Assembly: GCA_034110705.1 (NCBI GenBank)
Contig: JAWUYR010000030.1
Location: 243-64,242, forward strand
Length of the DNA: 64,000 nt
Direction of reading: 5' to 3'
Source of the DNA: Gammaproteobacteria bacterium
Lineage (GTDB): Bacteria; Pseudomonadota; Gammaproteobacteria; JABDGN01
A program made the position numbers. This document shows, piece after piece, positions 49,001 to 52,000 of this stretch. The stretch's first letter is position 1. Each line of letters begins with the position of its first letter.

Positions 49001-52000
49001 CGCCTAGATAAAAAGAAAATATTTTATTTTTATCTAGGGAGAGTAAGCTGTTTGGTAAGCAAAACTGTTGCATTAGGAGTTTCTTGTTAAGCATCTTATT
49101 CTTTTTAAGTTGTTATTATTGAGCACATTCTAGCAGTGTATAATTAACTAAACTTTAACGAACCGAATAATAGAAAATATTTTTTGTGAATTACAATTTC
49201 GCAGAATAAATCAAGAAGTTATTGTGAAATCATATTGTTAAGGTTGGTAATGTTGGTTAGGAATCATTCATTATTAATAATATGAGGAAATAGATTCATT
49301 TTAATATTTCTCGTGTTAGGTTAGCCGCAATTAATCTCTAATTTATGATATTATTCAACAATGCCAATCACTCAACAACAACGTTATCTTGAAACCCGTA
49401 AAGTCACTATCGTCGGTGCCTTAGCGAATATTGTTTTAGCGGTGGGCAAAATACTCTTTGGTTGGATGGGGCATTCTAGTGCGCTAATTGCTGATGGTGT
49501 GCATTCATTCTCAGATTTACTGACTGACTTGTTGGTTATTTTAGCGGCTAAGTTTGCACATCAAGAAGCTGATAGCGATCATCCTTATGGGCATGAGCGT
49601 ATCGAAACGGCGGCTGCAGTTGGCTTAGCTATGTTACTCCTCGTGGTGGGCTTAGCTATTATTTACAATGCGGCGGTTGAGCTCATTAATCATCATTTTG
49701 GTCATCGGCCGAATGTTTATGTCCTGTGGGTGGCTATTTTTTCTATTGTCGTGAATGAAGCTATTTATCATTACACTAAGCGCGTGGCTAAACGTATCAA
49801 ATCAGATATTTTATTTGCTAATGCTCTACACAGTCGTAGTGATGCCGCATCTTCATTAGTCGTGTTAATCGGTGTCGGTGGTGCTTTGCTAGGCCTACCG
49901 TGGTTAGATGGAATCGCGGCAATTATTGTCGGATTGTTAATTGTGAAAATGGGTGGTGTGATTGCTTGGCAAAATTTGGGTGAGTTAGTAGATACTGGTG
50001 TTGCCGTTAAAATACTCGAGCAAATTAATGCTCTGATTACAGAGATTCCTGGTGTCGATGCTATTCATCAATTACGTACTCGCAAAATGGCCGGAAAAAT
50101 ATTAGTCTATTTACACATTATTGTGCCACCTAAAGTTAGTGTGTCAGAGGGGCACCATATTGGTGAGCAAGTGTTACTGACATTGTACAAAAACGTTGAA
50201 GATATGCACGATGTGACCGTTCATGTTGATTCTGAAGATGATGAGCTTTATTCACACAGCGCCAAATTACCAATAAGGCAAATATTAGTTCCACAATTGG
50301 AGCAAGCCTGGTTAGACCTGCCAGGCGGTAATAAACTAACAAATATTCAGCTACATTATTTGGCGGGTAAAATTGAAGTCGAAGTGGAGTTACCACTGAG
50401 TATTTTACAACAGACCGATGTACAACAATTGGGTGACGAGTATCAAAATGCTATTGCCAACATCGCGCAAGTTCAGCGGGTGAGACTTACTTTTGCCTAA
50501 AAAATAATCAGCAAACCCTAATGCTGATACTCTTCCATCTCTTATCAGAATCAAGTAGAATTATTTGCATACACGTCACCCCAACCAAACAGGAGCCACC
50601 ATGTCTGTCGAAAAAGTTCTAGAAGCGATTAAAGCCAATGATGTTCAATTTGTTGATTTACGTTTTGTTGATACAAAAGGTAAAGAGCAGCACGTATCGG
50701 TCCGTTCCACTATGGTTGACGCTGATTTTTTTGTTGAAGGTAAAATGTTTGATGGTTCTTCGATCGACGGCTGGAAAGGTATTAATAAATTAGACATGAT
50801 TTTAATGCCAGATCCTGATTCAATGGTTATGGACCCTTTTTATGAGGATCCAACCTTAATTCTTCGTTGTGATGTGATTGAGCCCGATACTATGATGGGT
50901 TACACACGTGACCCGCGTTCAATAGTGTGCGTTGGTCAGTTGATATTAGTGGTGCTTCTTTCAAAATTAGTAGTGAAGAAGCTGCTTGGAGTTCGAATAA
51001 AGAATACGAGTCAGGCAATACTGGGCATCGTCCTGGTGTTAAAGGAGGGTATTTTCCTGTGCCGCCGGTTGATTCTGGTGAAGACTTACGTTCTACGATG
51101 TGCTTAGTCTTAGAACAAATGGGTGTAAGAACCGAAGTGCATCATCATGAAGTGGGTACCGCGGGGCAGAGTGAAATTGGTACAGTGTTTAACACACTAA
51201 CGCTTAAAGCCGATGAGTTATTGACCACGAAATATGTTATTCATAATGTCGCGCACAATTTTGGTAAAACAGCGACATTTATGCCAAAACCTTTAGTGGG
51301 TGATAACGGCAGCGGAATGCATGTGCATCAATCACTTTTCAAAGACGGTAACAATATTTTTGCTGGTGATAAATACGGTGGTTTATCTGATGAAGCTTTA
51401 TATTATATCGGCGGAATTTTGAAGCATGCCCGTGCTTTGAATGCTTTTATTAATCCATCAACAAATAGTTACAAACGTTTGGTGCCAGGGTTTGAAGCAC
51501 CTGAAATGCTAGCTTATTCTGCACGTAACCGTTCAGCGGCGATTCGTATTCCATACGTCTCTTCTCCAAAAGCGCGTCGTATTGAAGTGCGCTTCCCTGA
51601 TCCAGCGGCTAATCCTTATTTCGCATTCACAGCAATGATGATGGCTGGTCTCGATGGTATCCGTAATCGGATTCATCCAGGTGATGCTATGGATAAAGAT
51701 CTCTATGATTTACCGAGTGAAGAAAAGCAAAATATTCCAACCGTCGCGCCAACTTTAGATATAGCTCTAGAAGCCTTAGATAAAGATCGTGCTTTCTTAA
51801 AAGAAGGTGATGTTTTCTCAGATGACTTAATCGATGCTTATATTGATTTGAAAATGCAAGATGTGACAACATTACGTATGAGTATGCATCCGGTTGAGTT
51901 TGAGATGTACTACTCACTATAAACTGGGCTTAATGTAAATGAAGCAAATACAAAAAGCCCAACTATTGTTGGGCTTTATTATTTTACTGGCTATTAGCTT

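Follow-up and report, generated by a model that had tools for sequence, protein, structure and literature searches.

Glutamine synthetase (GS) provides the principal route by which ammonia is assimilated, and almost all free-living bacteria retain it. More than one GS is present in many bacteria, and the canonical housekeeping type I enzyme (GSI) is usually the main one. Early-stage pseudogene accumulation is seen in recently host-restricted bacteria (Sodalis glossinidius, Mycobacterium leprae, Shigella, and Yersinia pestis), whose genomes typically have many frameshifts, expanded IS elements, and lowered coding density. Loss of the GS gene glnA has been described in the obligate ant endosymbiont Blochmannia vafer (Williams & Wernegreen 2010, PMC3017870). 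Several strains were confirmed to lack the gene, and the consequence proposed there is that the host or a partner takes over ammonia assimilation (PMC3017870).

The locus described here lies on a 64-kb stretch of DNA from an uncultured marine gammaproteobacterium (the whole stretch is hereafter the window). It is best explained as a genuine but non-functional remnant of an adenylylation-type GSI gene, inactivated by a single 88-bp deletion in a lineage undergoing gene decay, and we give this reading a probability of about 0.9. An ORF listing placed the type I GS gene in two pieces at 50565-51922, as two overlapping ORFs in different frames on the forward strand (50565..51107 and 50927..51922). 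A preliminary description of this DNA had taken the gene to begin at 50565; that position holds for the ORF but not for the coding sequence, which starts at ATG 50601 behind a Shine-Dalgarno sequence that is kept (GGGAGCCACCATG) in intact relatives, as determined by DNA alignment. Coordinates of these and other disrupted features are provided in Table 1.

Table 1. Features of the glnA locus and of the other disrupted genes in the window
Feature	Position	Strand	Details
Nitroreductase	531-1283	+	In-frame TAA 894-896
purH (MGS + AICARFT/IMPCHase)	3987-5537	-	In-frame TAA 4797-4799
gspJ	30891-31514	+	In-frame TAG 31197-31199
Shine-Dalgarno AGGAG	50591..50595	+	5 nt upstream of glnA ATG 50601; read directly
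glnA 5′ remnant	50601..50921	+	Codons 1-107, N-terminal beta-grasp domain, ends ...YTRDPRS
Deletion junction	50919..50924	+	Placement ambiguous by about 2 nt
Out-of-frame tail of N-terminal ORF	50922..51107	+	Stop 51105-51107; without homology; frameshift product
glnA 3′ remnant	50924..51922	+	+2 frame; TAA 51920-51922
DUF4124	51939..52565	+	Adjoins glnA; in-frame TAA 52152-52154
OPT oligopeptide transporter	55374-57389	+	In-frame TAA 55602-55604

The N-terminal beta-grasp domain is present, with the whole of Pfam Gln-synt_N matched in the 5′ remnant (PF03951, profile positions 1-82 of 82, E 1.7e-29). The catalytic domain is incomplete: the 3′ remnant matched Gln-synt_C only at positions 42-344 of 344 (PF00120, E 8.5e-121), and the first ~41 profile positions are absent. 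About 94% of glnA is still present. The 3′ remnant keeps E212 and E220 (HHHEV..E), H269 (GMHVH), E357 (RRIEVRF), and the Tyr397 adenylylation motif (DLYDLP), which marks the ancestral enzyme as a standard GSI of the adenylylation type.

A protein search recovered an intact relative, a full-length GS of 469 amino acids (P0001) whose gene is carried on a 9-kb JGI contig (L081) and on a Logan contig (L082). Amino acid identity to this protein is 86% for the 5′ remnant and 96% for the 3′ remnant. When the window was aligned at the DNA level to these two contigs, there was a single gap of exactly 88 columns, located between window positions 50921 (..CGTTCA) and 50922 (ATAGTGTGCG..). Since 88 equals 29 × 3 + 1, the 332 downstream codons are moved into the +2 frame (50924 relative to 50601). 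Loss of sequence and change of frame go back to a single event. The preliminary description had proposed that two conserved GS flanks are separated by a loss of about 90 nt, or some 30 residues, with a +2 frame change at 50925-50927 that inactivates the gene. The alignment bears this out (88 nt, 30 amino acids in the relative, and a matching frame), except that the deletion and the frameshift had been listed as if they were separate lesions; both are present, and the one 88-nt event causes both.

Alignment to Salmonella GS structures from the PDB placed the N-terminal part at residues 1-106 and the C-terminal part at residues 137-467, such that residues 107-136 are lost. The lost segment holds the GPEPEFF strand and is present in all 115 full-length homologues examined; the G, P, both E residues, and the second F are found in 115/115 of these sequences and the first F in 114/115. 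Within it lie E129 and E131, which, according to established structural knowledge of GS, coordinate the two metal ions of the active site. In the six-ligand set that is presumed here (E129, E131, E212, E220, H269, and E357, Salmonella numbering), these two are deleted and the other four are present. The one continuous frame of about 469 codons expected of a functional GSI is also missing, as the two pieces are in different frames.

The lost codons, for residues 107-136, covered the linker as well as the catalytic barrel's first strand, including Glu129 and Glu131. Translation from the normal start would be expected to give a 107-residue beta-grasp domain followed by a nonsense tail of 61 residues, matching the 61 codons that end at 51107. 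The catalytic part has no start signal of its own, and two of the six metal ligands would be missing from it even if it were made. Because metal ligands are missing and there is no continuous ORF, there are strong grounds to consider that GS enzyme activity has been lost. We regard it as barely conceivable that glnA remains functional, whether by assembly of two separately translated polypeptides or because ribosomes cross the junction by programmed frameshifting or hopping. In its favour, neither remnant contains any further stop or indel; set against this, any product would be without the 30 residues found in all 115 homologues and in every solved GSI structure, recoding cannot restore DNA that is missing, and the ORF of the C-terminal part offers only GTG 50927 as a start, with no evident ribosome-binding site. 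The deletion itself was probably produced by replication slippage or illegitimate recombination with microhomology of a few bases at most.

The same two-piece glnA with an identical junction was found on a 5.9-kb contig from JGI sample 3300041950 (L083). In blastn, this contig and the window formed one ungapped alignment of 5,926 nt with 10 mismatches (99.83% identity), and a position-by-position comparison gave 11 differences, the last of which is at the contig end. With 11 differences in about 5,926 aligned positions, L083 is a different assembly, and it probably represents a slightly different population; the two assemblies may nevertheless belong to one project (the JGI 3300041950/3300041954 series), and their independence is only partial. 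Near-identical GroEL variants were present on two further JGI contigs, one of them from the sister sample 3300041954, and neither contig spans glnA.

Direct repeats of at least 7 nt flanking the deleted segment were searched for in the relative and none were found, and a repeat-mediated collapse at the junction was rejected for this reason. The 4-nt motif CAGT occurs near both edges of the segment and fails to reproduce the observed junction. Because the junction recurs in L083 and no such repeats flank it, a collapsed assembly is unlikely. More generally, the gap could be an assembly artefact (a collapse or a chimeric join) or a minority allele, the real genome having an intact glnA, and we consider this highly improbable. 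The window is probably part of a metagenome-assembled genome, its own proteins being recorded on a 91-kb NCBI contig, and a mixed population could include an intact allele. An artefact would nonetheless have to arise identically in a contig that was assembled differently and that differs at 11 other positions; it would also have to accommodate the missing flanking repeats, the finding that no full-length GS with more than 96% identity occurs among 5.8 billion proteins, and the changes at invariant sites in the remnant, which are as expected of a dead gene.

Gene order is common to the window and the relative (cation-efflux, glnA, DUF4124, Trp/Tyr permease, Mpo1-like, glucosaminidase, radA, glyA). 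The remnant is at the orthologous position and has clear homology to a functional gene, as expected of a unitary pseudogene. Scanning metagenome contigs with the C-terminal fragment gave a best match of only 80% identity and no further copies of the junction. The best match in a scan of GTDB genomes was 81%, in a sea-ice MAG, and the 96% relative lies outside the GTDB representatives. The relatives come from marine and sea-ice metagenomes, and a literature search with the sample identifiers (JGI 3300041950, 3300041954, and 3300036203; SRR12363491) found no paper. In an exact-product look-up, the junction-spanning ORFs of 180 and 168 amino acids, the 287-amino acid NCBI call, and the cation-efflux protein were not on record, and the permease was recorded for L083 only.

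Gene content also varies around the shared segments. The OPT transporter gene (about 2 kb, within window 55130-57417) is absent from the closest relative contig (L081, 6265-6622), in which the glucosaminidase gene and radA lie only about 360 nt apart where the window has the OPT gene. A more distant syntenic relative (L164, GroEL 93%) carries a 558-amino acid LPMO_10/GbpA/CBM2 chitin-binding protein after groEL, a gene that the window lacks, and proteins of 282 and 899 amino acids after accB, of which the window lacks the 899-amino acid gene. At the corresponding loci (16089-16723 and 10033-11772), the window holds unrelated short ORFs (195 amino acids; 243 and 67 amino acids), for which no Pfam match and no tblastx similarity were obtained.

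Synonymous sites are nearly saturated between the window and the intact relative (dS 1.1-1.4). The dN/dS ratio was 0.07 for the N-terminal part of glnA and 0.023 for the C-terminal part, a range similar to that of the intact neighbouring genes (0.02-0.06). These values indicate that purifying selection acted on glnA during most of the interval since the two lineages diverged. The low dN/dS, together with the lack of further stops or indels, points to a comparatively recent deletion; being common to L083, the deletion is older than the divergence of the window and L083 populations. Inactivation of glnA appears, on this sequence comparison, to be fairly recent and not brand new, placed between the divergence from the nearest sampled relative and the later one of the two near-identical populations.

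When amino acid changes in glnA were polarized using eight closer outgroups, the window lineage accounted for 13 derived changes and the relative for 4; the numbers are small and the excess is only marginally significant. Derived changes in the window include Ser64→Leu, which required two nucleotide changes and affects a position occupied by Ser in 114/114 homologues, and Thr458→Met, where Thr is 95% conserved. An intact GroEL control gave 17 versus 13 derived changes, although the relative used for this control is possibly not the same organism. The excess of changes in glnA would fit a relaxation of constraint.

Essentially all ORFs in the window were scanned against Pfam, and five further genes were found to be disrupted, each by exactly one in-frame stop in a frame that is otherwise complete (Table 1). 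With glnA, 6 of about 64 window genes are disrupted, which is a raised pseudogene fraction. The preliminary description had also reported purH as damaged, and the gene does carry one in-frame TAA; this stop replaces an aromatic residue that aligns with Phe in Campylobacter jejuni PurH. Over its 516 codons purH is otherwise intact, and so is the neighbouring purD (1767-3098). The DUF4124 protein is intact in the relative (212 amino acids), where the site of the stop is a Lys codon, and the stop is common to L083 and the window. The window lesions have an unusually one-sided spectrum, 5/6 being nonsense substitutions. Stop-codon reassignment or read-through was considered for the five stops and rejected, with more than 90% of genes free of internal stops; TAA is the ordinary terminator of 38/58 intact genes, and also ends glnA, and the five stops are therefore nonsense mutations.

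Two stops differ between the populations. The OPT stop TAA (window 55603) is TTA (Leu) in L083, and L083 has a private AAA→TAA change in the cation-efflux gene (49946), which is intact in the window. Of the 11 differences between L083 and the window, 7 are clustered in 49925-50108 and 10 are transversions. The private stops are either nonsense alleles in sister populations or low-coverage errors in L083 (for example, oxidative G>T). On the basis of the OPT and cation-efflux stops, some of the knock-outs are still polymorphic, unless low coverage has introduced errors into one of the assemblies.

ORFs cover 91% of the window, unlike the low coding density of a host-restricted genome. No transposase domains were detected in any Pfam scan of the window ORFs, and Rfam and tRNA scans of the window gave no match. 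The GC content of the window is 0.40 versus 0.41 in the relatives, and GC3 is slightly lower in 3/4 genes; strong AT drift relative to the relatives was considered and, the GC differences being small, no conclusion was drawn. The window includes a complete type II secretion cluster (24421-35212; gspD, E, F, G, H, I, J, K, L, and M, with gspC on the opposite strand), in which only gspJ, encoding a minor pseudopilin, is interrupted; this stop may or may not disable secretion. Sizeable ORFs without a Pfam match (288, 155, 646, 239, and 243 amino acids) were located at 42940-43806, 46690-49094, 3196-3915, and 10317-11048, and a 325-amino acid protein at 45631-46608 has a DXD-motif glycosyltransferase domain (Gly_transf_sug).

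What the loss would mean for glutamine supply depends on the GS complement of the cell: if there is no back-up GS, glutamine must be obtained from outside. It is possible, and in our judgment rather unlikely, that the pseudogene is real but harmless because another GS (a second GSI, a GSII, or a GSIII) is encoded elsewhere, in which case there would be no glutamine auxotrophy. Multiple GS genes are common in bacteria, only 64 kb of the genome is in view, and a 91% ORF density alongside a complete type II secretion system describes a lineage that is not highly reduced. What speaks against a redundant copy is that the broken gene is the canonical, conserved housekeeping GSI (96% to the relative, dN/dS 0.02) and that no second GS was detected in the 64-kb window by tblastn with an intact GS.

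The broken glnA and purH and the four other freshly disabled genes mark this uncultured lineage as one in gene decay. The metabolic dependence on a host that had been suggested from glnA and purH is plausible on these genes; no evidence of a host was found in the 64-kb window, and a free-living auxotroph living on community glutamine, or a redundant copy, fits equally well. We put forward only tentatively, as a possibility we consider doubtful, a lineage that is very early in reductive evolution, with knock-outs that are almost only nonsense and in part polymorphic, and in which loss of the only GS has become fixed, making it a glutamine auxotroph dependent on a host or partner. The locus is useful for reading the ecology of this lineage and for culturing, where glutamine and purines could be supplied. 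The loss of glnA is an ordinary unitary pseudogene, a fresh example of a known event that introduces no new mechanism or principle; biosynthetic genes decay similarly in many dependent bacteria.

Compared with the GlnA of Salmonella typhimurium and Escherichia coli (PDB 1F1H, 2GLS), the remnants are about 70-75% identical and share E212, E220, H269, E357, and the Tyr397 adenylylation motif. In contrast to a functional GSI-beta, residues 107-136 (with E129 and E131) are absent and the remainder is out of frame, and the window gene is not a functional member of that group.

The window resembles the genomes of Sodalis, M. leprae, Shigella, and Y. pestis in that well-preserved genes, including biosynthetic ones (here glnA and purH), have been disabled by single lesions while close relatives retain intact copies. 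It differs from them in that 5 of its 6 disrupted genes have one nonsense codon each, the Pfam scans revealed no transposase, and ORF density is 91%.

In B. vafer, glnA is wholly gone from a deletion hotspot in the 0.7-Mb genome of a known symbiont (PMC3017870), whereas here about 94% of the gene is left nearly undamaged in a gene-dense region of a bacterium with no known host. As in B. vafer, one lineage has lost a class I GS that its close relatives retain, and the loss sits among other lineage-specific gene losses (PMC3017870).
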